From a virus, in the IMG/VR virus record IMGVR_UViG_3300020182_000010, positions 32,001 through 96,000 of that record: a stretch of 64,000 nucleotides of DNA; one strand, 5' to 3'. Made by a program: the position numbers and the translations under genes. Shown one piece after another: positions 5,330 through 54,354 of this stretch. Every line of letters starts with the position of its first letter. The stretch's first letter is position 1. The notes beneath the pieces are model-generated. The model ran no database searches, was not told the DNA's origin, and saw only the letters and a list, made by a program, of their open reading frames with translations.

Positions 5330-5358
5330 TTTATATAGTGATTCGTTTAAGATGTCAA
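5330..5358 (-). promoter_or_regulatory. early sigma70 promoter with GANTC/YGAKTCG in the spacer
   Basis: TTGACA-tcttaaaCGAATCActa-TATAAA, 17-nt spacer. Confidence 0.85.
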
Positions 5359-5497
5359 GCACTAATTAAAATTTTATGACTTATAAATCATAGATAAATG
5401 AATAAGCAAAGAATTGGCATTGTAATCATTACACCTGTCAATGTAACATGTACAATCGACCAGAAAACCCTTTCCATTTCTAATCCTCTTCGAATTT

Positions 5498-6202
5498 TTA
5501 ATTGTTGTTGAAGTAATTTGCAGTATACTTCATTAACTGTTTTATTTGTTTTGAATCTTTAGGAAAGATATTTCTAAATCTCTGATATACAGGAAGTTCA
5601 TTTATAAACTTTTCTGGATTACGAATTGTTTCTTCTGGCGCATCTGTATCTCTAATTTCATCTGCTAAATCGTGCCCATATGCCATGAGTTCATGAGGAT
5701 CACGCAAATACATACGCATTAAATCTTGTTCTGTGCCGCCAGATTTTTTCTTCTCGACACCTTTCATATATCCACTACGATATGTCTTTAATACGTTTGG
5801 ATCAAATTTATCATATTGGTTCCAATGAATTGTTTCGTGAGCCAACATTTTCATAGCAATTTTTTTAAATGTTTCTGGTCCCCAACGGCCCTCTAAGTTT
5901 TTGGCGTGTAGAAATATTCTTACACTTTTGCCTTCTTTTGGATCCCAATCTGCTGCAGCACTAATCCATTCATCTGGATCTTTTCGTGGTGAATGGTCAG
6001 CAATAAAGTCGATAGGCAAATCATCGAAATTGTTAGCATTTAAAATCTCCTCAAGTTCATCAATATCATCACGGTCATCATTGTCAGCCAGATATTCTTG
6101 ATATTCTTTATTGGCTTCATCAATGATTTCTTCAACCTGAGAAAGAAAGTCTTCATCAGGTTGTAATCTGTTTTCTTGAATTATGATTTCATTTATTTTC
6201 AT
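5498..6202 (-). CDS. putative zinc metallopeptidase-motif protein, probable internal head protein
   Basis: AHETIH (HExxH) with a downstream PHELMA; likely start MKINEII at 6202, 5 nt after TAAATA. Confidence 0.6.
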   Translation of the reverse strand: MKINEIIIQENRLQPDEDFLSQVEEIIDEANKEYQEYLADNDDRDDIDELEEILNANNFDDLPIDFIADHSPRKDPDEWISAAADWDPKEGKSVRIFLHAKNLEGRWGPETFKKIAMKMLAHETIHWNQYDKFDPNVLKTYRSGYMKGVEKKKSGGTEQDLMRMYLRDPHELMAYGHDLADEIRDTDAPEETIRNPEKFINELPVYQRFRNIFPKDSKQIKQLMKYTANYFNNN

Positions 6203-6236
6203 GACAATATTTATCATTAATCCTAATAAATTATTA

Positions 6237-6575
6237 TTATTTCAAGTATAGTGGGCCAGTCCACTGAACTGTATAACCGCCATCAACGATATTTCCTCGA
6301 GCAGCATTACGTGCAGGAGCATTAAAACCTGCTGCTTTCAGAATATCACCACGCTTGAATTTCTTATCGTTGTCAGTGTTGACAATAAAACCCCAAACAC
6401 CATTATTGATAATCTTAATATATTTACTACCAGTCTTAACAGTAAGACGATTGTTAAACTCATTAATCATATTCTGAACATGTGTTTCAGCATCGGCAAA
6501 AGACTTACCACGAAGTAACCATTTAGCATAGTCTGCTTTGATTGTAGCGACAAGAGTATCAATTTGATTTTGCAT
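6237..6575 (-). CDS. hypothetical early phage protein
   Basis: GDILKAAGFNAPARN...WTGPLYL; follows an early promoter. Confidence 0.8.
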   Translation of the reverse strand: MQNQIDTLVATIKADYAKWLLRGKSFADAETHVQNMINEFNNRLTVKTGSKYIKIINNGVWGFIVNTDNDKKFKRGDILKAAGFNAPARNAARGNIVDGGYTVQWTGPLYLK

Positions 6576-6591
6576 TGTGTGATCCTTTGTT

Positions 6592-6635
6592 TCAATCTAT
6601 ACTTACTTTATATAGTGATTCGTTTAGAATGTCAA
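6592..6635 (-). promoter_or_regulatory. early promoter cassette (44-bp repeat) with GANTC/YGAKTCG
   Basis: TTGACAttctaaaCGAATCActaTATAAAgtaagtatagattga; identical to 6922-6965. Confidence 0.9.
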
Positions 6636-6642
6636 CCTTTTT

Positions 6643-6900
6643 TTATGATACCTCATAACCTAGTACAGTTTCTACATATCCATTGCCATACTCACCAGCA
6701 ATAGCCAATACGATCTGCTCACGTGGTTCAGTATCCATATTGTCAATCTTTGCTGCAGCACCATCGATATCATTCGAATTGATCATCCACTGTACGGCTT
6801 GGAAATCAGATAGATCATCCTCATATAGATTTGCAAGTGATGTACCTTGTGCCTCTACGAAGTAGCTAAAAGTTTCATCGATAAGTTTCTGAATAGACAT
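6643..6900 (-). CDS. hypothetical early protein
   Basis: 85 aa, flanked by two identical promoter cassettes. Confidence 0.75.
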   Translation of the reverse strand: MSIQKLIDETFSYFVEAQGTSLANLYEDDLSDFQAVQWMINSNDIDGAAAKIDNMDTEPREQIVLAIAGEYGNGYVETVLGYEVS

Positions 6901-6921
6901 AGAGGTTCTCTTTCTGTTTAA

Positions 6922-6965
6922 TCAATCTATACTTACTTTATATAGTGATTCGTTTAGAATGTCAA
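6922..6965 (-). promoter_or_regulatory. early promoter cassette (44-bp repeat) with GANTC/YGAKTCG
   Basis: exact copy of 6592-6635. Confidence 0.9.
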
Positions 6966-6967
6966 GT

Positions 6968-6998
6968 AAAAAGAGCGCCGAAGCGCCCTTTTATTTTT
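6968..6998 (-). terminator. intrinsic terminator
   Basis: aaaaag(a)gcgc-cgaa-gcgc(c)ctttt; UUCG loop on the minus strand, flanked by A/T runs. Confidence 0.8.
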
Positions 6999-7017
6999 TA
7001 ATCAATTGCATTTTTAC

Positions 7018-7581
7018 TCATTGCACTTCGAACAGTGTATCAATAGTAGAATGTTTTGCTTTGCCAGATTTACGTATGATATCTTTTCTTATTCTATCTT
7101 GAGTAATACGTAATCTAGGATACTTTCCAGTTTCTACAATAACACCATCAATAGTTTTGCCTGGTCTATCTAATGCAGCTCGAATTTTTCTTTCGAATAC
7201 ATCAGCAAACTCGCTTCTAAGGATGACTATCATATCTACAATTTCAATTACACCATCATATGCATCGTATGTTACAAAAATGAAATCACTATTAGTTTTT
7301 TGCTTCTTCGCTTCACTCCAGTTATCATAACTTTTAAGATCAGACGGTGTTAATCCAGTTATTGTGATATTTGCATCAGTATGTGTACTTTGTGATTTGA
7401 TTTCAATACAATGTTCTCCATTGATAATATCAGGACCTTCACCAGTATTATAACTATCTAATCCTAATACATTAAATACTACCCATTTTTCAATTTCATT
7501 GCCATACTTTCCATCACCGACGCCTTCAGCTTCCAGTACTGTGCCGATGTAGTTCTCTAGTTTAATATCAGTCAGTCTCAT
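7018..7581 (-). CDS. PD-(D/E)xK nuclease (restriction-endonuclease-like)
   Basis: EIEKW...GPDIING...IEIKS motif; own TTGACA-N17-TATAGT promoter at 7620-7648. Confidence 0.6.
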   Translation of the reverse strand: MRLTDIKLENYIGTVLEAEGVGDGKYGNEIEKWVVFNVLGLDSYNTGEGPDIINGEHCIEIKSQSTHTDANITITGLTPSDLKSYDNWSEAKKQKTNSDFIFVTYDAYDGVIEIVDMIVILRSEFADVFERKIRAALDRPGKTIDGVIVETGKYPRLRITQDRIRKDIIRKSGKAKHSTIDTLFEVQ

Positions 7582-7667
7582 TTTATTCCATCCATTACTC
7601 GTTATAATTATATAATTACACTATAGCATATTGTACTTTATTTGTCAATGCATTATATAAATCAGTT

Positions 7668-8177
7668 TTATGCGTAATTGTCAAGCCACTCTTTTGCTAA
7701 TTGAACTAACAGTGTGTTGTCTTCTATATCATTTGCAAAATCCATAATCGTAGCAATTCTTTCTACATCAGAGTTTGTATTATTTTTGTTTTCATTTAAT
7801 CTACGTGACCTAATTCGGAAGTTGTAAGGTGAATTATCACCTCCCTGTTCACGTGGTAAAATATGGTCTAAATTAGGCTCATGCATCTTATCGATTGGTT
7901 TTTGTTTGTTCTCTCCTGAACCCCAATCGTATTGATAAAAGATATTACCTACATAATATCCACGTGATTCTTCTAAATGAGTTTCAATGAACACCCAAGC
8001 CTGTTCTCTTGTCCACTTATAATCTTTTGCATACTTTCCTAGAATTTTTAACTTAAAGTATACATCTGGATCATATACATTTTCTACAAAGAATGCATAC
8101 AATTCTTTAGTATAATACGTAGATTCATCAAATCCAGTATATGGAATACGAGAAGAAATCTGGGAGTTCATTGACAT
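7668..8177 (-). CDS. HNH nuclease domain protein
   Basis: NLDHILPREQGG-DNSPYN...LNENK. Confidence 0.75.
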   Translation of the reverse strand: MSMNSQISSRIPYTGFDESTYYTKELYAFFVENVYDPDVYFKLKILGKYAKDYKWTREQAWVFIETHLEESRGYYVGNIFYQYDWGSGENKQKPIDKMHEPNLDHILPREQGGDNSPYNFRIRSRRLNENKNNTNSDVERIATIMDFANDIEDNTLLVQLAKEWLDNYA

Positions 8178-8178
8178 C

Positions 8179-9435
8179 TTATGCTGCCTTCTGGTCTTTA
8201 AATATTGGCATTACTGTAAAACTAGGCATTGCCTGTTCTGCAATATCGACACCTTTTACCTTGATAGATTCCCATTCAAGATTTGGACTAGTCACCCGAA
8301 CCCATTTCAATACGCCTGCAGCCCAGCGAGTTTGCAGGTCGCACAATGCATCTGACATTAATGGTGTATCACTATCGTCATTGAATGGGCCGTTGATACA
8401 AGCACGATTTGCATCTTTATAAAAACCAGTCTTATCCTTTTTTGGACACCAACGCTCAAGTGCCTCTTCGATTGCCATATCCATTACAAATTCATCAATT
8501 GAACTTGCTTGTTGAGACTTTAAAAAGTGACATACCATTTCAATCATCTGCTGTGGAATACGGTTGCGAACATTTACTGTCTGTGACGCAACAATAGATA
8601 CTGCCCGTGTAAAGATTTCAGCACCATAGCGTTCATAGTCTCGCAATGCATTAGCAATACCAGTACAAGTACGAGGTAAATTTTCTCCACCCTTCTCTAC
8701 AAACGTAATACCATACGATACTTCAACAATCTGATGAACGGCATGCGCATTTTTTACTAACGGTCCAAGATTATCAATATCTAAGTCTTCTGATTGTCGT
8801 GTCAAGTACTGTTGTACTCGGTTGCGGTACTTGTCAAACTCACTTGCTACAAGGCTTCCAATGTTTACACAGCCGTACTGTTCAACATCAACACTCAGGC
8901 TTTCAGACTGTTCAAATTCAACTGGAATGTACCGAACCCCCAAAATAATAGACGCAACGTTACGATGCTGTGCATCATTCATATAGAAACGATCCTCTAC
9001 AACCGAATAACGTGCTAATCCATTAAGTACCTTCTTTGGTTCATATACGAACAGAATATCTTCTAACAAGTGGCGTAGCATAATACCACGCTGAACTGCG
9101 TTGTTCTTGTACATCTTATCAGTTGACTTATACATTTCACGAGGACGTTCAAGTCCCATCGTCATAAGAGCAGTTTCTTCCTGCCAATTCAAATCAATGC
9201 CTAACAGGGCCTTAGACTGCTTTAATACCTTCAATACTTTGTTAACAACATAATAAAGTGAAGGGAATGGTCCCAAGTCGTCGGTAGAGATATATTCTGG
9301 GACAGACTTAATAATTTTTTGCTTTTCATCATATGACACTTCTGAAATTGGACGGCGTTCGCCTACTGGTCCAAAAATCATCGCTAAATCATTTCCCCAG
9401 AGTTGCTTGGGATCTTGTGCAAATGGTACAGACAT
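8179..9435 (-). CDS. ParB/Srx-like (DGQHR-type) domain protein
   Basis: VQR...MNDAQHR motif; true start probably MSVPFAQ at 9435 (GAGGA RBS, downstream of the promoter). Confidence 0.6.
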   Translation of the reverse strand: MSVPFAQDPKQLWGNDLAMIFGPVGERRPISEVSYDEKQKIIKSVPEYISTDDLGPFPSLYYVVNKVLKVLKQSKALLGIDLNWQEETALMTMGLERPREMYKSTDKMYKNNAVQRGIMLRHLLEDILFVYEPKKVLNGLARYSVVEDRFYMNDAQHRNVASIILGVRYIPVEFEQSESLSVDVEQYGCVNIGSLVASEFDKYRNRVQQYLTRQSEDLDIDNLGPLVKNAHAVHQIVEVSYGITFVEKGGENLPRTCTGIANALRDYERYGAEIFTRAVSIVASQTVNVRNRIPQQMIEMVCHFLKSQQASSIDEFVMDMAIEEALERWCPKKDKTGFYKDANRACINGPFNDDSDTPLMSDALCDLQTRWAAGVLKWVRVTSPNLEWESIKVKGVDIAEQAMPSFTVMPIFKDQKAA

Positions 9436-9454
9436 AGTATTATTCCTCTTCTCT

Positions 9455-9496
9455 AACTTATACACTCTTTATATAGTGATTCGTATAGATTGTCAA
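9455..9496 (-). promoter_or_regulatory. early promoter with GANTC/YGAKTCG
   Basis: TTGACAatctataCGAATCActaTATAAAgagtgtataagtt; leader shared with 5317-5358. Confidence 0.85.
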
Positions 9497-9513
9497 GTGC
9501 TAAATTTTAATAA

Positions 9514-9876
9514 TTAGTCCCACAAATTTTCATAAAATTCACCAAACAATTTAAAGGCATTGGTAAGCCGTTCTTGTGTTTCTTGCATACACTCCTTGCA
9601 TGCTGGATCAGAAAAGTTTGAACATTTATCAGCACAAATATCACCAGCGTCTATTTCTTTTGCCTTTTGTCCAAATGCCCAAATCATTTCATCTAGGATT
9701 TGGTTCCAACTTTCTTCAGTAAGACCGCTAGGATATCCATGTGTTGTTGCTTTGAGTTGTACAAGCATAGGATGAATAATCATAGCAAGTGTATGATCCA
9801 TACTCCAAGTATCGTGTGGTTCTATTTCAACTCTTGTGGCGCGATTTTTACGATATGGGCCTATTTTGACTCGCAT
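9514..9876 (-). CDS. hypothetical phage protein
   Basis: DTWSMDHTLA..IHPML..LK...HGYP...LDEMIWAF...LWD. Confidence 0.8.
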   Translation of the reverse strand: MRVKIGPYRKNRATRVEIEPHDTWSMDHTLAMIIHPMLVQLKATTHGYPSGLTEESWNQILDEMIWAFGQKAKEIDAGDICADKCSNFSDPACKECMQETQERLTNAFKLFGEFYENLWD

Positions 9877-9888
9877 AGTCTATACTTT

Positions 9889-10089
9889 CTAATTTATTTG
9901 TTTTGGTCCAGAAGAAGTGAATTCCATGCCATGTGCATTTCCAACATATATTTTTCCATTCCAATTCATTCTAATTCTATTAGTTGCAATATAAGCATCG
10001 AATGATTTACCCGGACGCATATTATCTGCCTCTACTTCAACACTATTGTTATTCATTGTGTTGGTAAGAATTGCTATTGTGTCATACAT
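9889..10089 (-). CDS. small hypothetical protein
   Basis: 66 aa with AAGGA RBS, in the early operon. Confidence 0.65.
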   Translation of the reverse strand: MYDTIAILTNTMNNNSVEVEADNMRPGKSFDAYIATNRIRMNWNGKIYVGNAHGMEFTSSGPKQIN

Positions 10090-10103
10090 TAATTATTCCT
10101 TGT

Positions 10104-10298
10104 TTAATCAAAAAAGTTACCTTCAATCCAATAAAATTCATCAGGGCCATCACTCCAAATGCCATCTTTTGATTTGGGATTACTCCATAACAATTGGCGA
10201 TTTGCTTGTTCCATAACTGAGATTGCTGTAGCACCTTCAAGTGTTACATTATTTCCATATGCAGTGAATGTATATTTTTTCATCGTTGTTACCTTCAA
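10104..10298 (-). CDS. small hypothetical protein
   Basis: 64 aa in the early operon. Confidence 0.6.
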   Translation of the reverse strand: MKVTTMKKYTFTAYGNNVTLEGATAISVMEQANRQLLWSNPKSKDGIWSDGPDEFYWIEGNFFD

Positions 10299-10537
10299 TT
10301 AAAATAAACGTGCAGATTATCATATATTGTATCGCCACCGTTCATTAACGCTGTCCCATCAATAAGATAAGTCATATGTTCTTGCTCAACTACAACCTGG
10401 ATATCACCGCCGTATTTGACCCGTGTACTAGTAATATTACCAATGAAAGGTGCACCTGCATAGTATCCACTAACTTCTGAACCTATAGCGTTATATAAGT
10501 TATCCATAAACGTTTTTTCTTCGTATGACACAATCAT
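10295..10537 (-). CDS. small hypothetical early protein
   Basis: 80 aa directly after an early promoter; AAGGA RBS. Confidence 0.7.
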   Translation of the reverse strand: MIVSYEEKTFMDNLYNAIGSEVSGYYAGAPFIGNITSTRVKYGGDIQVVVEQEHMTYLIDGTALMNGGDTIYDNLHVYFN

Positions 10538-10565
10538 TTATTTTTCCTTTACAACATATAAGTTC

Positions 10566-10594
10566 TTTATAAAGTGATTCGGTTATAATGTCAA
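10566..10594 (-). promoter_or_regulatory. early promoter with GANTC/YGAKTCG
   Basis: TTGACAttataacCGAATCActtTATAAA. Confidence 0.85.
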
Positions 10595-10606
10595 GAGAAA
10601 AATAAA

Positions 10607-11206
10607 TTATTTTACAAAGGCGCCAATTCTACCGTGTACATCTGGATAATCACGATATGTGTATCCTTTTGGTGGTTCTGTTGAGTCCCCCTTCCAGACT
10701 GGAATAAAATGATTTATATTGCCAGTGAAATCTTCATTTTTTCGAAAGTGAACTTCTATTAATTTATCACCTATAAATTCACAATTCATCCATGGATTCC
10801 TAGGCAAAAGTTCTATTAGGATTTCTGGAAATGGTATTCTGACATCATTTCTCCTCCAAGAACTCCATTTAACAAAAGTGTTTTCTGGTTTGACACCTTC
10901 AACGCATAAAAACTGTGTACCATTGTAGTAGTCAATACTAAAATGTCTACCCTCAAAGAACTCACACCAAAAGTGACCTATTGGTAGGTCCAGAGTTTCA
11001 CCTTCTATCCATGTCTTTTGAGCACCAAGACCAGGTCCCAGCATATTCACACAGGGTCTAACAATATAATTATCTGCTTTGGGGACATCGAGTCCAACTG
11101 GTCCACAGACATAACCTAGTTTGCGAGATAATATTAATTTATCAAGCGCCCAAATATCATTCGGGCTAATATTATGCCAAACAAAATCTTCTGCGCTATC
11201 TTCCAC
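10607..11206 (-). CDS. ATP-grasp-like phage protein
   Basis: YIVRPCVNMLG, WCEFFEG, NCEF...LIEVHFR pattern; GTG start. Confidence 0.5.
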   Translation of the reverse strand: MEDSAEDFVWHNISPNDIWALDKLILSRKLGYVCGPVGLDVPKADNYIVRPCVNMLGPGLGAQKTWIEGETLDLPIGHFWCEFFEGRHFSIDYYNGTQFLCVEGVKPENTFVKWSSWRRNDVRIPFPEILIELLPRNPWMNCEFIGDKLIEVHFRKNEDFTGNINHFIPVWKGDSTEPPKGYTYRDYPDVHGRIGAFVK

Positions 11207-15893: not shown

Positions 15894-15922
15894 AATATAT
15901 AATGATTCTATTATAATGTCAA
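15894..15922 (-). promoter_or_regulatory. early promoter, variant with GANTC (TGATTCT)
   Basis: TTGACAttataatAGAATCAttaTATATT; GANTC at the same offset as in the other copies. Confidence 0.7.
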
Positions 15923-16451: not shown

Positions 16452-19400
16452 TTATGCCAGCTTTCTTGCTGGCGGAGTAAAGCCTGGTGGTGTTTCAAGA
16501 AGGTCTGGATTATGAATTCCACCACCCGTATAAACTTCTATATCGGTCATCCATGAGTTTACGGTGTCAAAACGGGCGTTCGCCTTGTTTGTAAGACCGG
16601 ATATATCACTTGCATCTTCGTTTACAACTACTTCACCATTTATATAATGAACTATACGCCCATTTGATTGAAGTTCAATTGCAAAATGAATCCATCCCTG
16701 AGTATCCAATCTTGTATTACCATTAGCACTATGCGTATAATACTGGAACTCTCCATTGGAACCCCATCCAAGCGTATGAGGATAGCTGGTGCCAGCAATG
16801 AGCCATTGACTATAGGAATATGACGCGCTACTGCCCGCAGTAATCCCAGTCATACCTTCCCACATTGTGGGTTGAGCGGTTCTAAACTTTATGTAATATT
16901 GGTAGGTCATTCCTTCACTAAGATCATCAGTTGACCAAACGTGAACTGATCGGTTGGGCGAAGGGCCATCCAATGCGTTTGGATTGTTGAGCAAGGCATA
17001 TGAGCCGTCTTCAAGACCCCAACTATTTCCCCAACCTGTAGGATGGTGTAATGCAACATAATTTGTAGCATTTGTATCTAATTTAGCGGTCGTGACGGCT
17101 GCAAATGTAGCACTATCCCCACTCAATGACCACATCGGGGCAGGGCCTGCAGCAGGGACCTCTGCAGCGGTCTCTGCAGGGACCACATTCGAACCTAAAG
17201 ATTTAGTTGGTGGTGTAAAGTTTTCGGTGTATCTTGCAAGACCTTTAGTAATGCGGAAGTCTTGGATGTAGCCTTCAATTCGATTGCCGATTCCACCTCC
17301 GTCTCCTGCGTCAAATTCTCCCCCAATTGCAAGTATCAAATCATCCCAATTAATTGTAGATAACCCTGAGTATGTTTGAGACATAACTTCAGATCCATTT
17401 AAATAAGTTTTTAATGAAGTTCCTACAACAACTACGGCAACATGGCTCCATTCATTTTCAGGTACATTTGTACTGGTCGTCCAATAACTCGTTGATCCGT
17501 AATATATGGCTCCGCCTTCCATGCCTGTAAACACAATTACGTTATCTCCATTAGAAATTTTATTTAGACCAAATATCGCGCGATTGCCGCTGTATAATAC
17601 TGTTGGATTCACCCAAGTTTCGATGGTAAACCCTTCGTTTGTCACTAGTGGTCCAATTCCTAAATCTTCTACTCTAACATAACCAGTTCCATCAAAATAC
17701 ATTGACTTAGTATCAGCAAACTTTGGCTGAGCTGATGAACCGGTAGTATTTCCAAATAACGTTAGTTCATTACTACTTTGAGACTTATCTATAATAGAAG
17801 CGTCTGTTCCTTTGATGTGCAATGATGAACCAGAGGAAGATAGTGGAGCGGTAGGTGGTGTAAAGTCGGCGGTGTATCTTGCAACGTCTTTGGTAATTTG
17901 AAAATCGCTGATATTAAATGAACCAGGCCATTCCCCAGCATAAGAATTCAATCCAATAGCAAAATTACCTGAAATAAAGTTTGTACTATTTGATACTGAA
18001 CCTACACTTGTACCATCAATATATATATTGACGGTACCACTATTACGAACCCAAGCAACATGATGCCATTGATCTACGTTAATAGTTCCAACTAGGCCGC
18101 CCATCAGGTTATTGCCATCGGAATATAACTCAACTCCACCATCAGCGTGTATGCCGAGAGTGACATATGCTCCGGTTGTGTTAGTAGGTCTTGTATCAAC
18201 AAGTCTCAACCTTTCTGTGTTATTACGATAAATCCATGTTTCTATAGTAAAATCATTAGTTCCAAAATTTGTAATATTAGTATCATTTACTGTTAAATAA
18301 TCTCCACTACCATCAAAATACACAGACCCGCCGTGGATGCTTGGATTATATTCACTGTAGTCATATGGCGCCAATGGCATTGTGGAAACGTCACCAGTTA
18401 CTGTAATATCATGTGAGTTAGACGAACTATCTTTAATATATGGAAGAGAACTGCTAATTAATAATGCGGTATTAGCATCAGATTCGAATGCCTCTGTGGG
18501 TGGTGTAAATGCTACATCACTAAGTGATGTGCCACCCGTTCTTAAAACAGAGCCATTCGTTACAATGAGATCACTTATATATCCTCCGAAGAAATATTGT
18601 GTTCCTCCCGGTTCATAGCCTCCTATATATGGCCCATAAGCGTAAGAATTATAATTAGTGGAATTTGTGGTTGTAAGTACTAAAGAACCATTTACATATA
18701 ATTTTAGTGAATTACCGTTATTTGCATCTCTATTTAGACTTACATGGTTCCACTCATTTAGCTCGTAAGCATTAACTGTACTAAAATAATCAGCGCCCCC
18801 TGAGACATATTGTCCGAATATAAACTGATTAGTTCCAGTGAGGCCTAGGTAGTATCCATTCGCCGTACCAACTTTATGTGTATTAAAAATCGGGCCTTTT
18901 GCTCCTGTCGGGTACATCCAAAACTCAATACTAAATGAGTTAGTTCCGAAATTAAAATCTGAGAGTGCAGAGCCACCCAATTTCAGTTTATCGCCGGAAC
19001 CATCAAAGTAAGTTGAATATCCACCACTTCTATATGGACTAAAAGTACTAGCCGTCGCATCGCCATTTACTGTAATACTATGGTTATTAGTAGATGAATC
19101 AGTTATATTGTTATTATCAGAAGTTCCTGTTGCTGTTACAAGTAATGTTGTATTACTTGAATTTAAAACCGGAGAATTTTCTACTGGTGCTGCAGGTGCT
19201 GCGCCAACACTACCCATACCACTATGATTTTGGCAATAATAGTATAGTGTAGGTGCACCAACTTCTACAGTAATTTCTGTGTATGCACCTGTTTGCCCAG
19301 GTACGCCATTATAAGTAACACCTGTTGTATATTCACTGCCGCTATCATGTGTGCCGTTTGCAGTTGTGCTAAACTTTAATGGATGTCCAGCATTAGTACT

Positions 19401-19769
19401 ATCGCTTTGGTCAAATCTGTAAGTTTCACCTTCAGTTAATGTAACTGTTGGACTAGCGCCTATTTCATCAGTAATATAATATTTGTTACCAGTACTATAT
19501 GTGTTTGTACCACTGGCAACTGTGACTACATACGTTGTTCCGCTAAATGTTGCAGTAATAGCAGAATTAATATTACCGTCAACATCTGTTAGATCAGTTA
19601 AGTCTACCGGAACATCACTTAGTCTTGCCATTGGAATACCACCAGTTGTAACTCCATCATGTAGTATTATTCTGTTATTAGTGGTATCAAATGTAACTTC
19701 TGCCATTTCGCCTGTAAAGGATTCATGTTCTGTACTAGTGCCCTGGCGTAATTTTACTGATTTTGCCAT
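16452..19769 (-). CDS. tail fibre / virion adhesin with Mtd-like N-terminus, cupredoxin-like module and repeated LamG/ConA domains
   Basis: LRQGTSTEHESFTG...HDGVTTGG N-terminus; HPLKF...YYCQNHSGMG; repeated YFDGSG...F(T/S)IExW...WxHVA...FTPP; late promoter at 19800-19807. Confidence 0.85.
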   Translation of the reverse strand: MAKSVKLRQGTSTEHESFTGEMAEVTFDTTNNRIILHDGVTTGGIPMARLSDVPVDLTDLTDVDGNINSAITATFSGTTYVVTVASGTNTYSTGNKYYITDEIGASPTVTLTEGETYRFDQSDSTNAGHPLKFSTTANGTHDSGSEYTTGVTYNGVPGQTGAYTEITVEVGAPTLYYYCQNHSGMGSVGAAPAAPVENSPVLNSSNTTLLVTATGTSDNNNITDSSTNNHSITVNGDATASTFSPYRSGGYSTYFDGSGDKLKLGGSALSDFNFGTNSFSIEFWMYPTGAKGPIFNTHKVGTANGYYLGLTGTNQFIFGQYVSGGADYFSTVNAYELNEWNHVSLNRDANNGNSLKLYVNGSLVLTTTNSTNYNSYAYGPYIGGYEPGGTQYFFGGYISDLIVTNGSVLRTGGTSLSDVAFTPPTEAFESDANTALLISSSLPYIKDSSSNSHDITVTGDVSTMPLAPYDYSEYNPSIHGGSVYFDGSGDYLTVNDTNITNFGTNDFTIETWIYRNNTERLRLVDTRPTNTTGAYVTLGIHADGGVELYSDGNNLMGGLVGTINVDQWHHVAWVRNSGTVNIYIDGTSVGSVSNSTNFISGNFAIGLNSYAGEWPGSFNISDFQITKDVARYTADFTPPTAPLSSSGSSLHIKGTDASIIDKSQSSNELTLFGNTTGSSAQPKFADTKSMYFDGTGYVRVEDLGIGPLVTNEGFTIETWVNPTVLYSGNRAIFGLNKISNGDNVIVFTGMEGGAIYYGSTSYWTTSTNVPENEWSHVAVVVVGTSLKTYLNGSEVMSQTYSGLSTINWDDLILAIGGEFDAGDGGGIGNRIEGYIQDFRITKGLARYTENFTPPTKSLGSNVVPAETAAEVPAAGPAPMWSLSGDSATFAAVTTAKLDTNATNYVALHHPTGWGNSWGLEDGSYALLNNPNALDGPSPNRSVHVWSTDDLSEGMTYQYYIKFRTAQPTMWEGMTGITAGSSASYSYSQWLIAGTSYPHTLGWGSNGEFQYYTHSANGNTRLDTQGWIHFAIELQSNGRIVHYINGEVVVNEDASDISGLTNKANARFDTVNSWMTDIEVYTGGGIHNPDLLETPPGFTPPARKLA

Positions 19770-20260: not shown

Positions 20261-21352
20261 TTACCAACCAATTCTTTCCCAAGGAACATCTTTGTTACCA
20301 AAGTGTCCATATACACAATTTTCACTGTATTTAGTATAGTTAAATAAATCAAATCTATCAATAATTCCTCTAGGAGTTAGATCAATACTTTCTTTAATAA
20401 ACTTTTGAATACTACGATTATGTCCGTTCGAATCAACATAGATACTTGTAGGTTCTTTAATACCGATAGCATAACTAAGTTGTATACTGCACCAATCTGC
20501 CATATTATCTGCCACAACATTCTTGGCAAGCCAACGAGCCATATATGCAGCGGAACGATCTACTTTAGTAGGATCTTTGCCACTAAAAGCACCACCACCG
20601 TGCGGAGCAAATCCGCCATAGGTATCAACAATAATTTTTCGTCCAGTAACACCGGCATCACCATCAGGACCACCTATAACAAAATTGCCAGTGGGATTAA
20701 TATGCCAGATTGTATCGTCATCGATCAAATCTCCCATGGCATGATGTGCGGCTTGTTTTGCAATTATTCTTGCTGCTTCTATTTCATTTTCTGTGTGTTG
20801 AGTACTAATAACAATTTGATCTGCGCGTTTTACTATACCACCTTCATATTGCATACTAACCTGTGATTTTGCATCTGGTCCTAATATACTGTCTAAATTT
20901 CTAACTTCTTTTAATTCTTTAAGAATTTTGTGAGCATAATAAATCGGGGCTGGCATATATGAATCATTATCATTACAAGCATAACCAAACATGATGCCTT
21001 GGTCACCAGCACCGAAGTTATCAGTACCTAAGGCAATATCTGAACTTTGTGAATGAATTTCATTATAGATTTTTAGTTTGTCCCAATGAAATCCCTTCTG
21101 TTCGTAACCGATATCACGAATTTTATTACGCACAATTTCCTTGACAGTATCTTTGCTTACGTTAAAGTTTTTCACTTCGCCAGCCAATGTCACATGATTC
21201 GTAGTCACAAGAGTTTCTACCGCAATACGAGTTGTTTCATCACCATTAGCAAGCCCCGCATCTACTAATGCATCTGAAATTTGATCTGCAACTTTATCTG
21301 GATGACCGTCACTAACACTTTCACTTGTAAAAATATAATTTCCTGGTTTCAT
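20261..21352 (-). CDS. metK: S-adenosylmethionine synthetase
   Basis: FTSESVSDGHPDK, GAGDQG, GPDGDAGVTGRKIIVDTYGG, GGGAFSGKD; likely start MKPGNY. Confidence 0.97.
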   Translation of the reverse strand: MKPGNYIFTSESVSDGHPDKVADQISDALVDAGLANGDETTRIAVETLVTTNHVTLAGEVKNFNVSKDTVKEIVRNKIRDIGYEQKGFHWDKLKIYNEIHSQSSDIALGTDNFGAGDQGIMFGYACNDNDSYMPAPIYYAHKILKELKEVRNLDSILGPDAKSQVSMQYEGGIVKRADQIVISTQHTENEIEAARIIAKQAAHHAMGDLIDDDTIWHINPTGNFVIGGPDGDAGVTGRKIIVDTYGGFAPHGGGAFSGKDPTKVDRSAAYMARWLAKNVVADNMADWCSIQLSYAIGIKEPTSIYVDSNGHNRSIQKFIKESIDLTPRGIIDRFDLFNYTKYSENCVYGHFGNKDVPWERIGW

Positions 21353-21368
21353 TATAATCTTTCTATTT

Positions 21369-21779
21369 TTATTTTTTTGCACTGCATACTAATTCACGCA
21401 GTTTACTTGAACTAAATCTATGATCCCGTTCATTGAAATATATTTCAATATCTCTTTTTTTACAAATATCTCTACCAGTAAAATCTTTATCACGATATTC
21501 TACTCCTAGAATGCGTATATCAATATGCATACCACTAAGAATATCTTCCAAATCTTTTTCGGTTGCATATGGAATAATTTCATCCACATACTTACACGCC
21601 CGTAATTGTAGATATCGTTCGACCACAGTTTGGACGGGTTTATTTTTTGTATCTCTGTCAATTGATGGATCTATTTGCAATCCCACAATTAAATAATCAC
21701 AATGTGATTTTGCTTCTTCTAACATAAGAGTATGTCCTGCATGTAGTAAGTCAAATGTTGATGCTGTGAAACCTATCAT
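21369..21779 (-). CDS. TagD-like cytidylyltransferase
   Basis: FDLLHAGH, LIVGL, KNKP, RDHRFSSS. Confidence 0.9.
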   Translation of the reverse strand: MIGFTASTFDLLHAGHTLMLEEAKSHCDYLIVGLQIDPSIDRDTKNKPVQTVVERYLQLRACKYVDEIIPYATEKDLEDILSGMHIDIRILGVEYRDKDFTGRDICKKRDIEIYFNERDHRFSSSKLRELVCSAKK

Positions 21780-21781
21780 TA

Positions 21782-22248
21782 TTATAACCTCATTAAAAAA
21801 TCTGCTGCATCTATTTCATTTCTGAAATTAATAGTTGCTGTACTAATATATTTGTCTATATGACAAGAAAAGTCTCTAGATTCATACCGAGAGACTAAAT
21901 CATTTCTTAATTCTACATCACTTGTGCCATCATACATGACAACTACTGCATATGGCAGTTTTACATCTTTAATCATTAATGATTTTACTAGTTTCATTCC
22001 AGACATATTTCATTCATACCAGTCATTACAGATAAGCAAGTACTATCTAGATTAAATTCCATAACTGTTGTCCACATTATTGGCAGAAACGCTGCTGTAA
22101 GTATAGTGATAATAATACCAGAAATAGTTAAAATCATATCATCTGGATTTTTAGGCAATGCTGTTACCATCATTATTGTTACTATAATCAACATTACTAA
22201 ACATATTGTTAATAACATTGTCAGCCATACAAAAAACGTTTCAGCCAT
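21782..22248 (-). other. two small hypothetical ORFs (21782-22006; 21994-22248, 2 TM)
   Basis: co-oriented, overlapping ORFs. Confidence 0.55.
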
Positions 22249-22258
22249 ATTTAATCAC

Positions 22259-23428
22259 CTATATTTTAGTAGTAGAATTTGCATATACTGAATTAAATTG
22301 ATTATTTACTCTAACAAATGTTGTACACTTTGTCAACTGTTTTAATTTTTGAGCGCCCGCATATGTACAAGTTGATCTAATACCTCCAAGAATATCTTGT
22401 AGTGTGCTTTCAACTTCTCCACGATATGGTACGAGAACTTCTCTGCCTTCACTACTTCTATAATTCTTTAGTCCACCAAAGTGCTTTGTGTTGGCTGCGT
22501 CACTGCTCATACCATAAAACTGTACAAATCGCTTTTCTTTATATACTGGTTCATAAAAATTATCATCGGTTTTGATAACTTCATCTGTTTCGTAAATCTT
22601 TGTTATTACTTCGCCACCGCCCTCAACATGTCCAGCAAGCATACCACCTAGCATCACAAAATCAGCACCAGCAGCAAATGCTTTAGCAATATCACCTGGA
22701 CAAGTACAACCGCCGTCAGCGATAATGTGACCACCAAGCCCGTGAGCAGCATCGGCACATTCAATGACCGCTGAGAGTTGCGGATATCCCACCCCAGTTT
22801 GAATACGTGTTGTACAAACACTTCCAGGGCCGATGCCCACTTTAACAATATCTGCACCATTTAAAATTAACTCTTGTGTTTGATCCGCAGTGACAACATT
22901 GCCAGCAATGATTACAATATTAGGATATAATAGTCTAAAGTCGGCAACAAAATTAGTAAATCGTTCACTGTAACCATTAGCCACATCAATGCATACATAT
23001 TTTAAATTAGAATTAACGTGTGTATGCACACTTTTAAATTTTTTTAAATCTTGTTCACCAATCCCAATACTCATTGCAATATGTTCTTTATATTTTGAAT
23101 TTGAATTGAAAAATTCAATTAATTCATCAGAACTATATGTTTTAACCAAGCAAGTAAAAACGCCTTGTTCTGCTAAAGTAGTTGCCATTGCAAATGTACC
23201 AACTCCATCCATATTTGCTGCCATAATTGGTATACCATCAAAATCGGATTCAACATATGGACCCGCTGGATATCCAGAAGGTAGAACATCAATGTTTAAT
23301 AACGGAGAATAGTTTCGAAAAATAAATTCTCTGTTTAAATCAACATCTTTTCGTGAACTAAGTATTGATCTTTTAGGCCGAATAAGAACATCACTATAAT
23401 CAAGTAATACTTCATTTTCGATACGCAT
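22259..23428 (-). CDS. guaC: GMP reductase
   Basis: [51 protein letters not shown]. Confidence 0.95.
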
Positions 23429-24404: not shown

Positions 24405-24488
24405 TTATACATTCCTCTTATGACAAGTTACATTTAAGTTTAACATTTTAATTATTGCACATATTTGTGCGATTGTCAAGAATTATTT

Positions 24489-25118
24489 TTAATTCCAGCG
24501 ATAAAAGATATGTGATCCAATACGTCCGATCAGATCCATACCACGATCACTGCGCCAGTTTGGTTTAACATAGGTAGCATGATAGTGTGTAGCACCCTCC
24601 GTAATACCACGAAAACGTTCATCGTGCATCATTTCCCATGCAACCATTTGTGCACGGACCCAGTTTTCAGAACCTTCTGGTACTTTATCTGACTTGCCGT
24701 CACAATACCAAGAAAATTGGCACCTATTTCGACGCATATTGCCACGGCTATCTTTTTGTCCATCATACACTACTTCACATACCGTACTAGGATAATGCGA
24801 ATGTAATACTCGATTTAATACTACATCTGCAACTGCTGCCATGCCAGCATGATTATCTATTCCACTTTCAAAGAAAATATTCTGTGCCATACAAAATTCT
24901 TGCTTGTATTTTTTAGGCGAATATAGAAAGTATTCTTTATCTCTGCGTGATTTATAGTCAGATGCAGAGGCTAATACTACCATGTTTTCTACTGGTTGCA
25001 CGACATTTTGTAGAGTCGTAGTTTCATTTTTTACACTTGCCTGTGGGGTTGTTACACTAACTAGTGTGGTAAGAATTGCTGCATTCACTGAGTATGCTAT
25101 TACATTTTTCAGTTTCAT
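24489..25118 (-). CDS. SleB/CwlJ-family cell wall hydrolase
   Basis: signal peptide; CMAQNIFFE, VLNRV, CEVV, CQFSWYCDGK, GATHYHA, IGSHIFY. Confidence 0.92.
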   Translation of the reverse strand: MKLKNVIAYSVNAAILTTLVSVTTPQASVKNETTTLQNVVQPVENMVVLASASDYKSRRDKEYFLYSPKKYKQEFCMAQNIFFESGIDNHAGMAAVADVVLNRVLHSHYPSTVCEVVYDGQKDSRGNMRRNRCQFSWYCDGKSDKVPEGSENWVRAQMVAWEMMHDERFRGITEGATHYHATYVKPNWRSDRGMDLIGRIGSHIFYRWN

Positions 25119-25152: not shown

Positions 25153-25181
25153 TTTATACAGTGATTCGTTTTAAATGTCAA
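25153..25181 (-). promoter_or_regulatory. early promoter with GANTC/YGAKTCG
   Basis: TTGACAtttaaaaCGAATCActgTATAAA. Confidence 0.85.
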
Positions 25182-27377: not shown

Positions 27378-27543
27378 TTTTTACGCTCCGGAGCAAATTT
27401 CATTCTATGCCAATAACTTAACATAACAGATTGTTATTGTCAAGAGTTAATTTTGAAATACAAGTATTTAATTTGAATTAACTACCTATAAATACAATTG
27501 AGAGAATAGAAATGAGAAACTAGTAATTTACTAGGAGAGGGTA

Positions 27544-43273: not shown

Positions 43274-43454
43274 ATTACTATTATTCCTTTGCTTTTAAGA
43301 TTAATGTTCTTTGTATTTCCCATCAATATCATAATATGCAGAATTATATATTGCCCAAGATATACTATTATGTATTTTGTGGTCTTGCACTCTTAATTTT
43401 TTATACCATTGTGAGAAGAGTATAACACGATTTTTCATTCTTGTCAACAACTTT

Positions 43455-49473: not shown

Positions 49474-49724
49474 ATATTATCTTGTTGACGTTTCATTTTT
49501 TGCCAACGCTTTCTTCCAGCATCTTTAGCCTTACGTTTTATTTCGCTTGGCTTTACATATTCTTTTCGTGTTCTAATTTCTTGTACTAGTCCTTCTTCGG
49601 TGCATTTCTTTTTAAATCTACGAAATGCTTTTTCAAAGTTTCCATTTTTTACTTCAACAGTCATTCCAGACTTCGCATATCTGTCACTGTCGTTTCCTTT
49701 TACATAGTGATTATTTTTAGTCAT
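49470..49724 (-). CDS. rpsU: ribosomal protein bS21
   Basis: FEKAFRRFKK...EIR.RKEYVKPS..KR. Confidence 0.9.
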   Translation of the reverse strand: MTKNNHYVKGNDSDRYAKSGMTVEVKNGNFEKAFRRFKKKCTEEGLVQEIRTRKEYVKPSEIKRKAKDAGRKRWQKMKRQQDNI

Positions 49725-50241
49725 TTTTTTGTATTAAACCTATAATTCTATTGCCATTTAGTTTTAATGGCTGTTCATATTTCCAGTTGGCTAAACCATT
49801 AGAAATTGCTTCTACAAAAAATGTCAGAACATCATGTGCTTTGGCATTTTCTCGGCCTTTCATTTGTATAGTTATTTTAACCTTAGAACCGTTATCAATA
49901 AACTTCTGTGCTTTGCGCAATTTTATTTGTAAGTCATGAATACCAATTCCAGGTCTGAATTTAACTTCTTTAATGTCAACAGCATTTGCCCTAGCAGATT
50001 TCTCTTGAAATTTCTGACGCTTTTTCAATTCATAATTGTATTTATTAAGACTAATTATTTTCGCTACCGGTGGCTTTGCATCTGGAACCATTAGTACTAA
50101 ATCCAAGCCTTCATCAGTTGCCATACGTTGTGCAGTCTCTTTTGACATCACGCCCAGTGTGTCGCCATCACTTCCTATAATTCGCAACTCATTAACTGTT
50201 ATTTGCTCATTATACTTAATTGCGGATTTGCTTCTATCCAT
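49717..50241 (-). CDS. infC: translation initiation factor IF3
   Basis: NEQI...RII..DG..LG, GLDLV...PPVAKI, KEVKFRP.I..HD, KVKI.I..KGRE. Confidence 0.95.
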   Translation of the reverse strand: MDRSKSAIKYNEQITVNELRIIGSDGDTLGVMSKETAQRMATDEGLDLVLMVPDAKPPVAKIISLNKYNYELKKRQKFQEKSARANAVDIKEVKFRPGIGIHDLQIKLRKAQKFIDNGSKVKITIQMKGRENAKAHDVLTFFVEAISNGLANWKYEQPLKLNGNRIIGLIQKND

Positions 50242-51504
50242 TTATGTGTTTTGCTTAACCTTTTCTTCTTCATTGAACACTAACATTGGTTCTTTGTTTC
50301 CTAAAATGAATTCGTCTGTTATATGCACAGAACGAAGTCCTTGTTTTGCCAATTTTGGCAACTTAAATTGTATTTGTAAAAGTGATTTTTCAATTACACT
50401 TCTCAAACCTCGAGCACCTGTTTTATCAGTTGTTGCTTTTTCAGCAATACAATCAAGAGCAGAATCAGAAATAATTAACTCTACGCCATCAAATCTAAAC
50501 AATTTTTCAAATTGTGCAACAATACTATTTTTAGGCTCAGTTAATACTTGTACTAACTGACTTTTAGTAAGAGAATCAAGTCCAACAATAATTGGAAATC
50601 TGCCCATAAATTCTGGGATGACTCCATATTTTATTACATCTTGTGCTTCTACTTGCTCACGGATATTTATCTTTTTAGTTGATTTATCATAGATAACTGC
50701 ACCAAATCCGATGCCTGCATTTGATGTTACTCTACGTTCAATAATTTTATCAATACCAACAAAGGCGCCGCCTACTATAAACAATATTTTACTTGTATCA
50801 ATTTCAATCATATCTGATCCAGGATGCTTACGCCCACCACTAGGTGGAACACGAACAATTGTACCTTCTACAATTTTAAGCAATGCTTGCTGAACACCTT
50901 CACCACTAACGTCTTTTGTAATAGAAACATTTTCACCTTTTTTGGCTTTTTTATCAATTTCATCAATATATACAATACCTAATTCTGCTTTTTTAACATC
51001 AAAATCTGCAGCAATAAGTAATTTCTGGACTACGTTTTCTACATCGTCGCCTACATATCCACTTTCAGTTAATGAAGTTGCGTCAATTTGTGCAAATGGA
51101 ACATCTAAAAATTTAGCAACTGTTTTTGCAAGTAATGTTTTGCCAGTTCCCGATGGTCCCATAACCATTACATTAGACTTGTCTAATTCTATACCATCTG
51201 AATCATCAGAGTTAATACGTTTATAATGATTATATACTGCAACACTAAGCACTTCTTTTGCTTCGTCTTGTCCAATAACAAATGCATCTAAAAATTCTTT
51301 GATATCTTCTGGGCCTGGAATTGACTCTATACTATCACCACTAGCACTAGTAATAGTCAATTTTTCTTTGGGGTCATGAATTATTTCATAGCACAAGTCA
51401 ATGCACTCATTGCAAATGAACTGATTTGGTCCAGCAATGAGTGTTTTAACTATATCTTTTTCTTTGTTACAAAATGAACAAGTGTAATTTTTAGTATCTG
51501 TCAA
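50242..51504 (-). CDS. clpX: ATP-dependent Clp protease ATPase
   Basis: CSFC...CNEC zinc finger, [23 protein letters not shown] loop, GARGLR; TTG start. Confidence 0.97.
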
Positions 51505-51516
51505 GTATCACCTATA

Positions 51517-52887: not shown

Positions 52888-52957
52888 TCTACTCTCCTAA
52901 GGATAATTACAGCCCTCTTCATCTGTATTTATCATTTTGGAGAGTAAAATTTACATA

Positions 52958-53461
52958 TTACATATCTACATTTAAGTATACAGTAGTACCCTTTTTAAAC
53001 CATTGTTGCGTATATAAACGAACTGTTTGCCCACCAATATCAACAGTTACCATATTATCACCACGCACTTGTGATACTTTATTGGTATATGTTGTACGAC
53101 ATTGACGTTCTTGCCGATATCCCACAATAACAGTTTCCTGTTTACCTTTTTTATTAACTTTGTCTGCACCAATAATTGCACCTAAAACGGTCATTGCATC
53201 TTTGCCACTACCGTTACCGAATTGATTGCCGATTGCACCGCCGATAATTGCACCTACTAGAGCATCACCAGAACTGGCTTGTCCTGTTCGGCGTGTTTCA
53301 TAAATTGGAACATCTACTGTATTACATGTTTGAATTGGAACTTCCTGAACAACATCACGATATGTTTCCTTCATTCCAATCACAGTGCCGCGTACCTGTT
53401 CCGCATAAGAAACAGTTGCAGTCATTAAAAGTGCGGCAGTAATTGCCAATACATTTTTCAT
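52958..53461 (-). CDS. glycine-zipper 2TM (YcfJ-like) secreted protein
   Basis: signal peptide; GAIIGGAIGNQFGNGSGK..MT..GA..G. Confidence 0.85.
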   Translation of the reverse strand: MKNVLAITAALLMTATVSYAEQVRGTVIGMKETYRDVVQEVPIQTCNTVDVPIYETRRTGQASSGDALVGAIIGGAIGNQFGNGSGKDAMTVLGAIIGADKVNKKGKQETVIVGYRQERQCRTTYTNKVSQVRGDNMVTVDIGGQTVRLYTQQWFKKGTTVYLNVDM

Positions 53462-53553
53462 TTTTCAAGTCCTCTAATAATGCTTTCAAGTTTTTCTACC
53501 CGTTGTTCAAGTAGAATAATTTTTCTTTCTAGTAGTTGATAATTATCCATCGA

Positions 53554-53940
53554 TTAAGATCCTGTTACAAGTTCAAGTGTGCCATCTTCACCGAATTCAA
53601 AGTCTTCGATATAACGATGATGTGTTCCACTTTGTTTGATGCATGATTCAGCAGCAGCCCACAATGCCTTGATTGAGCCATTTACTGCAAGAGAACTAAC
53701 TTGCATCATAGTGTCGTTAGTACCATTTCGAAAATCTGCATTAATTTCTTCAAACGTTGCGTCTGGACGAACAAACTCATAAGTTACTTTACGAACTTTA
53801 TCGGAGAACAATTCAAACTCAGGACGTCTTGTGCCGAATTCATACATACTCCAAACAGTTGACATGCCCAATTCTTGCTGCATTTCATCAAAGTGGTTCA
53901 TTGCAACTGTGAATTCATCGTATTGCGCTTGATTTGTCAT
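53554..53940 (-). CDS. hypothetical early protein
   Basis: likely start MTNQAQ after AAGGA; follows a promoter cassette. Confidence 0.75.
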   Translation of the reverse strand: MTNQAQYDEFTVAMNHFDEMQQELGMSTVWSMYEFGTRRPEFELFSDKVRKVTYEFVRPDATFEEINADFRNGTNDTMMQVSSLAVNGSIKALWAAAESCIKQSGTHHRYIEDFEFGEDGTLELVTGS

Positions 53941-53957
53941 ACTGTGTTTCCTTTGTT

Positions 53958-54001
53958 TCAATCTATACTTACTTTATACAGTGATTCGTTTAGAATGTCA
54001 A
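53958..54001 (-). promoter_or_regulatory. early promoter cassette (44-bp repeat) with GANTC/YGAKTCG
   Basis: 1 mismatch to 6592-6635. Confidence 0.9.
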
Positions 54002-54009
54002 GCTTTTTA

Positions 54010-54291
54010 TTACGCTGCAGATAACATTTCTGCAGGAACTTTCCAATTCATATATCCCACTTTAACATGAATATAACGACGGTTTACTTTACTGATAACT
54101 CCAGTCTCGACCATATTACTGCGAGTGTTAGTAAATTTAACATTATCGCCAATAACAAATGAACGCACTTTTTGATTGGCTAAGAATCTACCCTGTAATT
54201 GAAGACGGTTATTTACTTCACGACATTGATCGAAATCTGCTTTGCCCAAAAGTGCAAGAACTGTTTCCATTTCAGATGTTGATAGTTTCAT
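54010..54291 (-). CDS. hypothetical early protein (SH3-like C-terminus)
   Basis: IGDNVKF...GVISKVN...W.V; flanked by promoter cassettes. Confidence 0.7.
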   Translation of the reverse strand: MKLSTSEMETVLALLGKADFDQCREVNNRLQLQGRFLANQKVRSFVIGDNVKFTNTRSNMVETGVISKVNRRYIHVKVGYMNWKVPAEMLSAA

Positions 54292-54310
54292 AATAATTCT
54301 CTCTGCTGTT

Positions 54311-54354
54311 TCAATCTATACTTACTTTATATAGTGATTCGTTCAGAATGTCAA
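54311..54354 (-). promoter_or_regulatory. early promoter cassette (44-bp repeat) with GANTC/YGAKTCG
   Basis: 1 mismatch to 6592-6635. Confidence 0.9.

Follow-up and report, generated by a model that had tools for sequence, protein, structure and literature searches.

The stretch of DNA analysed here (the window, 64,000 nucleotides) comprises bases 32001-96000 of a 155,152-bp IMG/VR viral record, IMGVR_UViG_3300020182_000010 (35% G+C), for which CheckV gives a completeness of 42%. The window codes for PutA, ClpX, MetK, GMP reductase, and leucyl aminopeptidase. No tRNA genes were found. The replicative helicase is 52% identical to that of Pseudomonas phage PA5oct, the closest cultured relative by this protein, and 48-49% identical to those of Agrobacterium phage Atu_ph07 and Sinorhizobium phage Phosso. 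Based on the helicase, we place the phage among the jumbo myophages of the broad PA5oct/Atu_ph07/Phosso group. A near-identity DNA search among phage records found no close relatives. The features of interest are promoters that carry a heptamer containing GAATC (the box) in the spacer between the -35 and -10 hexamers. GAATC is a form of GANTC, the CcrM site; GcrA and CcrM make up the textbook epigenetic cell-cycle switch of Alphaproteobacteria.

The pattern TGATTCK-N7-TGTCAA has nine matches on the + strand of the window, where 0.01 would be expected from dinucleotide shuffles. Read on the minus strand, each site is cTTGACA-N7-CGAATCA-N3-TATAAA or TATATT (the heptamer being AGAATCA in the variant), with a 17-nt spacer in which GAATC occupies positions 9-13. 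The original prediction had listed nine GANTC-bearing promoters, at 5339, 6616, 6946, 9477, 10575, 15903 (TGATTCT), 25162, 53982, and 54335, and all were recovered (Table 1). The same design extends over the full record, which contains 22 box promoters, all with a 17-nt spacer and all co-directional with transcription. The -35 is a perfect TTGACA in every one of them, and the box words are CGAATCA (17), AGAATCA (three), AGAATCG (one), and CGAATCG (one). A Shine-Dalgarno site lies 25-35 nt downstream, with an open reading frame (ORF) that is mostly short. Judging from gene content, the genes behind box promoters may be early genes.

In a per-position profile, information is high at the -35, the CGAATCA word, and the -10; over the 7 nt preceding the box it is low. 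The spacer bases flanking the box had been described as variable. This is correct for the 7 nt upstream, although they are A/T-rich, and incorrect for the 3 nt downstream, which are semi-conserved (cTa) in the present phage and vary freely in distant relatives. CGAATCA is concentrated between genes: 17 of its 26 copies in the record are intergenic, where intergenic DNA makes up 6.3%, and all are co-directional with transcription; the comparable figure in Caulobacter phage Cr30 is 2 of 32. Most host-type promoters of this phage carry the box at this one fixed place, and it is almost certainly a functional promoter element.

Table 1. Promoters with and without the box in the window (window positions; sequences are written on the strand given, with the -35, box, and -10 in capitals).
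Feature	Position	Strand	Sequence	Context
Box promoter	5330..5358	-	TTGACA-tcttaaa-CGAATCA-cta-TATAAA	Shine-Dalgarno site and ATG about 27 nt downstream of the -10
Box promoter	6607..6635	-	TTGACA-ttctaaa-CGAATCA-cta-TATAAA	Drives 112-aa ORF 6237-6575
Box promoter	6937..6965	-		Directly after GC-rich hairpin and T-run GGGCGCTTCGGCGCTCTTTTT (about 6966-6995); terminator-promoter cassette
Box promoter	9468..9496	-	TTGACA-atctata-CGAATCA-cta-TATAAA	Upstream of 428-aa ORF 8179-9465
Box promoter	10566..10594	-	TTGACA-ttataac-CGAATCA-ctt-TATAAA	
Box promoter	15894..15922	-	Variant box AGAATCA (+ strand TGATTCT), -10 TATATT	Fits published YGAKTCK
Box promoter	25153..25181	-	TTGACA-tttaaaa-CGAATCA-ctg-TATAAA	Upstream of 209-aa ORF 24489-25118
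Box promoter	53973..54001	-	TTGACA-ttctaaa-CGAATCA-ctg-TATAAA	
Box promoter	54326..54354	-	TTGACA-ttctgaa-CGAATCA-cta-TATAAA	
Box-free promoter	7620..7648	-	TTGACA-N17 ending TGc-TATAGT	Extended -10 with T at -7
Box-free promoter	24451..24479	-	TGc before AATAAT	
Box-free promoter	27415..27443	-	TGt before TAAGTT	
Box-free promoter	43419..43447	-	TGt before TATACT	
Box-free promoter	56584..56612	-	TTGACA-N17-TAATAT	TG abutting the hexamer

The hairpin and T-run GGGCGCTTCGGCGCTCTTTTT also abuts promoter -35s at record positions 104711 and 124877 (the hairpin was read from the sequence itself). A simple terminator scan did not report it. Such terminator-promoter cassettes are similar to the promoter-early-stem-loop elements known from T4-type phages.

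We found the exact promoter pattern on more than 114 IMG/VR contig stretches. Among the matches listed, the contigs have 31%-45% G+C; roughly one stretch in two comes from a close relative (75-93% protein identity), and others share only 30-60%. A blastn search with the promoter sequence as query returned only noise. We compared five further IMG/VR records and counted their TTGACA-N8-GAATC sites: G001 (342 kb, CheckV 92%) has 15, G002 (285 kb, 100%) has five, G003 (203 kb, 56%) has 21, G004 (146 kb, 40%) has 15, and G005 (145 kb, 95%) has four. The reversed pattern, used as a control, has zero matches in every record. G005 is a true T4-like phage: its major capsid protein has 73% identity to the one in Methylophilales phage Melnitz and 67-69% to the pelagimyophage proteins; its helicase is just 23% identical to that of the present phage, which marks a separate lineage. 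The cultured podovirus CRP-6 (45 kb; host Rhodobacteraceae bacterium FZCC0042) carries TTGACG-cccacaa-CGAATCA-ctc-TATACA, ending 39 nt before the start codon of gp05, and 11 of its 23 YGAKTCK-type heptamers lie within the last 2.5 kb of the genome. A scan of IMG/VR for the TTGACG version matched 28 stretches, many from CRP-6 relatives (77-98% tblastx identity), and uncultured relatives of CRP-6 retain the box with an altered spacer. The design recurs in three unrelated phage lineages: the jumbo phages, the T4-like G005, and the CRP-6 group.

The first gene behind the promoter at 6607-6635 is the 112-aa ORF (6237-6575, minus strand), whose function is not assigned and which has a weak DUF7717/phrog_5014 match. 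Homologues are present in the jumbo relatives G001, G002, and G003, just downstream of a box promoter in G001 and G003; none was found in PA5oct.

The box resembles the published recognition site of GcrA in several ways. GcrA prefers a subset of methylated GANTC sites, TGATTCG and more broadly YGAKTCK (Haakonsen et al., PMC4647560). Its regulon sites are narrowly centred near -20 or lie at +2 to +30 (PMC4647560), and later structural work gives centres at -20 +/- 1, -30 +/- 2, or +5 to +30 (PMC9976885). Across five genomes, YGAKTCK is matched by 88 of 98 promoter boxes, against 767 of 5268 other NGANTCN sites (15%; Fisher p 4e-60). The substitutions seen in the box flanks, C then A on one side and A then G on the other, are those that YGAKTCK permits. 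Assuming a start site 7 nt past the -10 (start sites are predicted), the phage GAATC spans about -21 to -17. The non-template strand of the solved GcrA-RNA polymerase scaffold, derived from PcsM, reads TTGACA-CCCGGG-CG(m6A)ATCC-CTGC-TATAAT, where m6A is N6-methyladenine. Its GAATC occupies spacer positions 8-12 (-22 to -18), 1 bp farther from the -10 than the phage box, and the orientation is the same, with CGAATC on the non-template strand in both. Two of the compared records use further positions. G002 has TTG-CGAATCA-N13-(C/T)ATAAG, with the box near -30, another published position; G005 has a non-template TGATTCG immediately downstream of the -10, which is the orientation of the downstream box of PmipZ. 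The proposed match of TGATTCG to the GcrA word thus extends to degeneracy, position, orientation, and a sigma70-type context.

A second, box-free class of promoters had also been proposed. This class is real: all five of the named promoters are present, and TGn, the extended -10 element, is canonical in four. We scored 128 intergenic TTGAC[AT]-N17-TAnnnn promoters from five genomes for the box, TGn, and T at -7 (-7T). Among the 55 box-bearing promoters, 10 have -7T and four have TGn; among the 73 box-free promoters, 48 have -7T and 45 have TGn (Fisher p 1e-7 for -7T and 9e-11 for TGn). Just eight of the 128 promoters lack the box, TGn, and -7T altogether. The -7T trend in the present genome alone is in the same direction and borderline (p 0.05). 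Of 46 promoters in the control phages PA5oct, Melnitz, and HTVC008M, 45 have -7T. No box promoter within positions 5000-11000 of the window is detected by a standard sigma70 scanner for which -7T is obligatory. In G001 and G003, the three positions separating the box from the -10 are free to vary, so that the absence of TGn in these two relatives is not imposed by the box motif. Since box promoters mostly lack -7T and TGn, the box appears to substitute for intrinsic -10 strength. GcrA is reported to stimulate open-complex formation (PMC4647560), and a box that replaces -10 strength would fit an activator of this step, as GcrA is.

We searched the phages for a gene that could encode the reader of the box. 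The Pfam GcrA model (PF07750) has no match in the present record, in G001-G005, or in CRP-6, and the same search finds the GcrA of phage phiCbK at E 7e-26. The original prediction had allowed for a GcrA of either host or phage origin, and the phage-borne option is not borne out by these genomes. Phyletic profiling of the box-bearing genomes against PA5oct, HTVC008M, and Melnitz found no DNA-binding protein common to all box-bearing genomes; the sole protein with the full pattern looks spanin-like. The candidates from profiling that were set aside are a PAAR protein, a cytidylyltransferase, GMP reductase, spanin-like proteins, and two small proteins without assigned function, which are not common to all box-bearing genomes. 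Because three unrelated lineages carry the design and neither gcrA nor a shared reader gene was found, a host-supplied reader is most likely. An unrelated, MotA-box-like phage activator had been named as one finding that would overturn the GcrA idea; profiling produced no phage candidate for one, and the box does not replace the -35. The host of CRP-6 is an alphaproteobacterium. GcrA and CcrM are conserved among Alphaproteobacteria (PMC3667746), which is our basis for taking Rhodobacteraceae to have GcrA.

Several observations weigh against a GcrA-based reading. The search of the full record for a ccrM homologue finds a phage methylase (PF01555, record positions 123394-124032, outside the window), but it is a generic beta-class enzyme. 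It scores 98 bits against the NCBIfam CcrM equivalog model (cut-off 830) and about the same against a different adenine methylase model, and its PDB match to CcrM (6PBD, E 3e-21) covers residues 15-250 only. We therefore rule it out as a CcrM orthologue, and it is missing from relatives G001 and G002. The central N of the GANTC boxes is almost always A, so that selection on GANTC as a methylation unit, as opposed to the heptamer alone, is not supported. GAATC is only mildly avoided in the present record (observed/expected ratio 0.85, z -3.0, order-3 Markov model). The host evidence is mixed as well. The closest cultured relative by helicase infects Pseudomonas, the best matches of the metabolic genes are mixed or gammaproteobacterial (75% identity to Vibrio phages for the cytidylyltransferase and 52% to a Salmonella gene for the GMP reductase), ClpX and PutA have nearby relatives in phages only, and the host clue from the ESM Atlas resolves no finer than the phylum Pseudomonadota. 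The promoter motif is absent from PA5oct, Atu_ph07, Phosso, HTVC008M, Mosig, Melnitz, cyanophage S-H38, Cr30, phiM12, and phiCbK. Cr30, phiCbK, phiM12, Atu_ph07, and Phosso have hosts with CcrM and GcrA, and HTVC008M and Mosig are SAR11 phages. The design is not a general trait of alphaproteobacterial phages, because the tested Caulobacter, Sinorhizobium, and Agrobacterium phages lack it. In 596 Gb of prokaryote genomes, the strict pattern has 16 scattered single matches, none in a record named as alphaproteobacterial. Such scattered singles give no host clue, and they indicate that the motif is not a common bacterial promoter.

In cultured alphaproteobacterial phages, the loose pattern TTG-N10-MGAMTCR is about as frequent as chance predicts; the exceptions are the clear CRP-6 promoter and a suggestive site in the cultured Sinorhizobium phage phiM12. 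The latter is intergenic (record positions 5440-5480, minus strand) and reads TTGCGC-atatgcg-CGAATCA-tgc-GATACC. Its spacing is that of the box promoters; it is a single case.

On balance, we consider it reasonably likely that the box is read by host GcrA, and the phage probably borrows this protein to turn its genes on. We infer that the reader is GcrA, that the present host is an alphaproteobacterium, and that m6A at GANTC matters, although for a role of methylation in box function our confidence is slightly less than even. In the mechanism that we propose, the promoters would serve the primary-sigma RNA polymerase of the host, and the spacer would hold the site for a host-supplied GcrA-type cofactor. 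The -35 would be kept at consensus and the -10 deliberately weak, usually TATAAA, TATAAC, or TATACA, without -7T or TGn. The non-template CGAATCA at about -22 to -16 would be bound by a monomeric reader tethered to sigma domain 2, and the bound reader would help open-complex formation and so offset the weak -10. The m6A at GANTC could come from host CcrM or from the methylase that the phage encodes. We offer only tentatively, as a doubtful extension, the idea that at least three unrelated aquatic phage lineages independently tied promoters with a weak -10 to host GcrA, so that expression follows cell-cycle stage and perhaps the methylation of phage DNA. In this extension, injected DNA would be fully methylated and replicated DNA hemimethylated or unmethylated, which would provide an epigenetic timer that tells incoming from replicated genomes.

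A different sequence-specific factor could share the GcrA word, either a phage-encoded or virion-delivered activator (MotA-like) or a host factor of a non-alphaproteobacterium. We regard this as unlikely, but it has several points in its favor: the Pseudomonas host of the closest cultured relative, the phages of GcrA-bearing hosts that do without the design, the 42% of the present genome in hand, and small function-unassigned early proteins conserved behind box promoters, such as the 112-aa ORF shared with G001-G003. Such a factor would make the 7/7 match to the GcrA optimum, together with degeneracy, position, and orientation, a large coincidence, and it would also have to account for the same design in a 45-kb podovirus of a Rhodobacteraceae host. 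No candidate protein is common to all box-bearing genomes apart from the spanin-like one, and the intact consensus -35 is unlike the sigma appropriation of MotA.

The remaining explanations do without a reader. The box may be an element intrinsic to RNA polymerase, contacted by the beta-prime zipper or sigma region 3, or else a feature of DNA shape that adjusts promoter strength for the host polymerase. It does sit where the polymerase contacts spacer DNA, and it statistically replaces TGn and -7T, which are themselves polymerase contacts. We nevertheless consider an intrinsic element improbable, as seven near-invariant bases exceed the information of any known spacer element and the exact pattern is essentially absent from bacterial genomes. 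In relatives, the same word is used at about -30 and inverted downstream of the -10, which argues for a tethered reader and not a fixed polymerase contact. More improbable still is a mobile promoter cassette that spread and was homogenised with the GANTC word as a functionless passenger. Several copies directly after a terminator hairpin and near-identical leaders (for example at 6607-6635, 6937-6965, and 53973-54001) are what such a cassette would leave, but in this genome the box stays constant, in contrast to the leaders and to the 7 nt on the upstream side of the box. The -35, box, and -10 alone are kept across lineages of 30-60% identity and across unrelated ones, and the box covaries with -10 quality.

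Reading by host GcrA would bring these promoters close to a known type, the GcrA/CcrM sigma70 promoters of Caulobacter crescentus (PcsM type; PMC4647560, PMC5887438, PMC9976885), with which they share the heptamer, its orientation, and a spacer position near -20. PcsM-type promoters are also primary-sigma promoters, and an activator that aids the open complex suits a weak -10. The phage promoters differ from the PcsM scaffold in the 1-bp shift of the box toward the -10, a perfect TTGACA -35, and AT-rich DNA, and from the PcsM type in that they occur on phage DNA in at least 20 copies per genome and have only a putative reader, host, and methylation. Caulobacter phage phiCbK also links phages with the GcrA system, but what phiCbK carries is the GcrA protein; the present phages have the DNA site, and the search for gcrA in them was negative. 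The middle promoters of T4, which depend on MotA and AsiA, have an extra word upstream of a sigma70 -10 that is bound by a sequence-specific activator. There, the MotA box stands in place of the -35, at about -30, and phage MotA and AsiA are required. In contrast, the promoters described here keep a perfect TTGACA in 22 of 22 cases and have the box at about -20, and our searches gave no phage activator. Extended -10 promoters form the second class in the present phage, and TGn and the box look like alternative compensations for a weak -10. TGn is read by sigma region 3, whereas the box depends on seven specific bases and probably has a protein of its own as reader. CarD-dependent alphaproteobacterial promoters (PMC7703639) likewise have a -10 without -7T and need a helper bound to RNA polymerase to open. 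CarD, however, is not sequence-specific, and in the phage only the box class lacks -7T, which box-free promoters keep.

Searches of the literature turned up no paper on phage promoters organised around a GcrA box. If the reading is correct, many abundant aquatic phages would couple transcription to a host reader of cell cycle and methylation, and the box together with the missing -7T would be a marker for assigning uncultured phages to alphaproteobacterial hosts from sequence alone. CRP-6, a cultured roseophage with the same architecture, would provide a laboratory system for the idea. The trade-off among box, TGn, and -7T predicts that a promoter in which -7T is restored becomes independent of the box.

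GANTC was first counted at 123 sites against 171 expected, a depletion that shrinks under an order-3 Markov model. GANTC depletion is weak under this k-mer context model, and we dropped it as evidence of methylation or restriction pressure in the present genome. In coding sequence only, GAATC has z -4.0 and rank 33 of the 1024 pentamers. Under the order-3 model, GAATC is the most avoided of the 1024 pentamers in G001 (z -14.5) and G003 (z -9.1), and GACTC is also low in both. Among phages of Alphaproteobacteria, the GAATC avoidance rank is 1 in RDJLphi1 (0 observed, 94 expected), 3 in Cr30, 5 in phiM12, and 3 in the SAR11 phage HTVC008M; avoidance is mild in the SAR11 phage Mosig (z -3.9, rank 83). 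It is also mild in the Methylophilales phage Melnitz (z -3.1, rank 111), and there is none in the Pseudomonas phage PA5oct or the Synechococcus phage S-H38. With few control genomes, GAATC avoidance is suggestive for the clade and weak for the present record.

GANTC, the CcrM/HinfI site, is avoided almost completely in two cultured phages of Alphaproteobacteria. The Roseobacter phage RDJL Phi 1 (NC_015466.1) has one GANTC site in 62.7 kb against 163-233 expected, and the Pelagibacter phage HTVC008M has 43 against 252-456. Strong avoidance of further short sites is seen elsewhere: in G005, GAGAC occurs 0 times against 71 expected and CACTG 44 times against 187, and CCWGG occurs 0 times against 243 expected in G002, once against 68 in CRP-6, and once against 151 in phiM12. 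This suggests restriction pressure.

The window also encodes metabolic and proteostasis genes. PutA (1280-4123, minus strand) is a full-length bifunctional protein with 63-93% identity across a phage clade; bacterial PutA proteins are at most 44% identical and are spread over several proteobacterial classes. A cluster at 20261-23428 (minus strand) contains MetK (S-adenosylmethionine synthetase), a TagD-like cytidylyltransferase, and GMP reductase, and the latter two have 55-63% identity in the unrelated T4-like G005. ClpX (50242-51504, minus strand) is full-length and scores 566 bits against the NCBIfam equivalog. The best 120 ClpX matches listed are 74-100% identical, and one that was looked up lies on another jumbo-phage contig. 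The genes after ClpX in a 286-kb relative encode IF3, ribosomal protein S21, and ClpS. Taken together, this looks like an old phage-borne module for proteostasis and translation.

Outside the window, a spanin-like pair of overlapping ORFs (record positions 21173-21977, minus strand) is common to the jumbo relatives. The first of these ORFs has a 28%-identical homologue in G005, and tblastn also finds it in HTVC008M, Vibrio phages, and RDJL Phi 1. This ORF is a possible marker of a shared envelope type. Within the window, a gene at 16452-19769 (minus strand) encodes a 1105-aa protein with an N-terminal Mtd_N (major tropism determinant) domain and three Laminin_G_3 lectin-like domains, and on this domain content it is probably a receptor-binding fibre.

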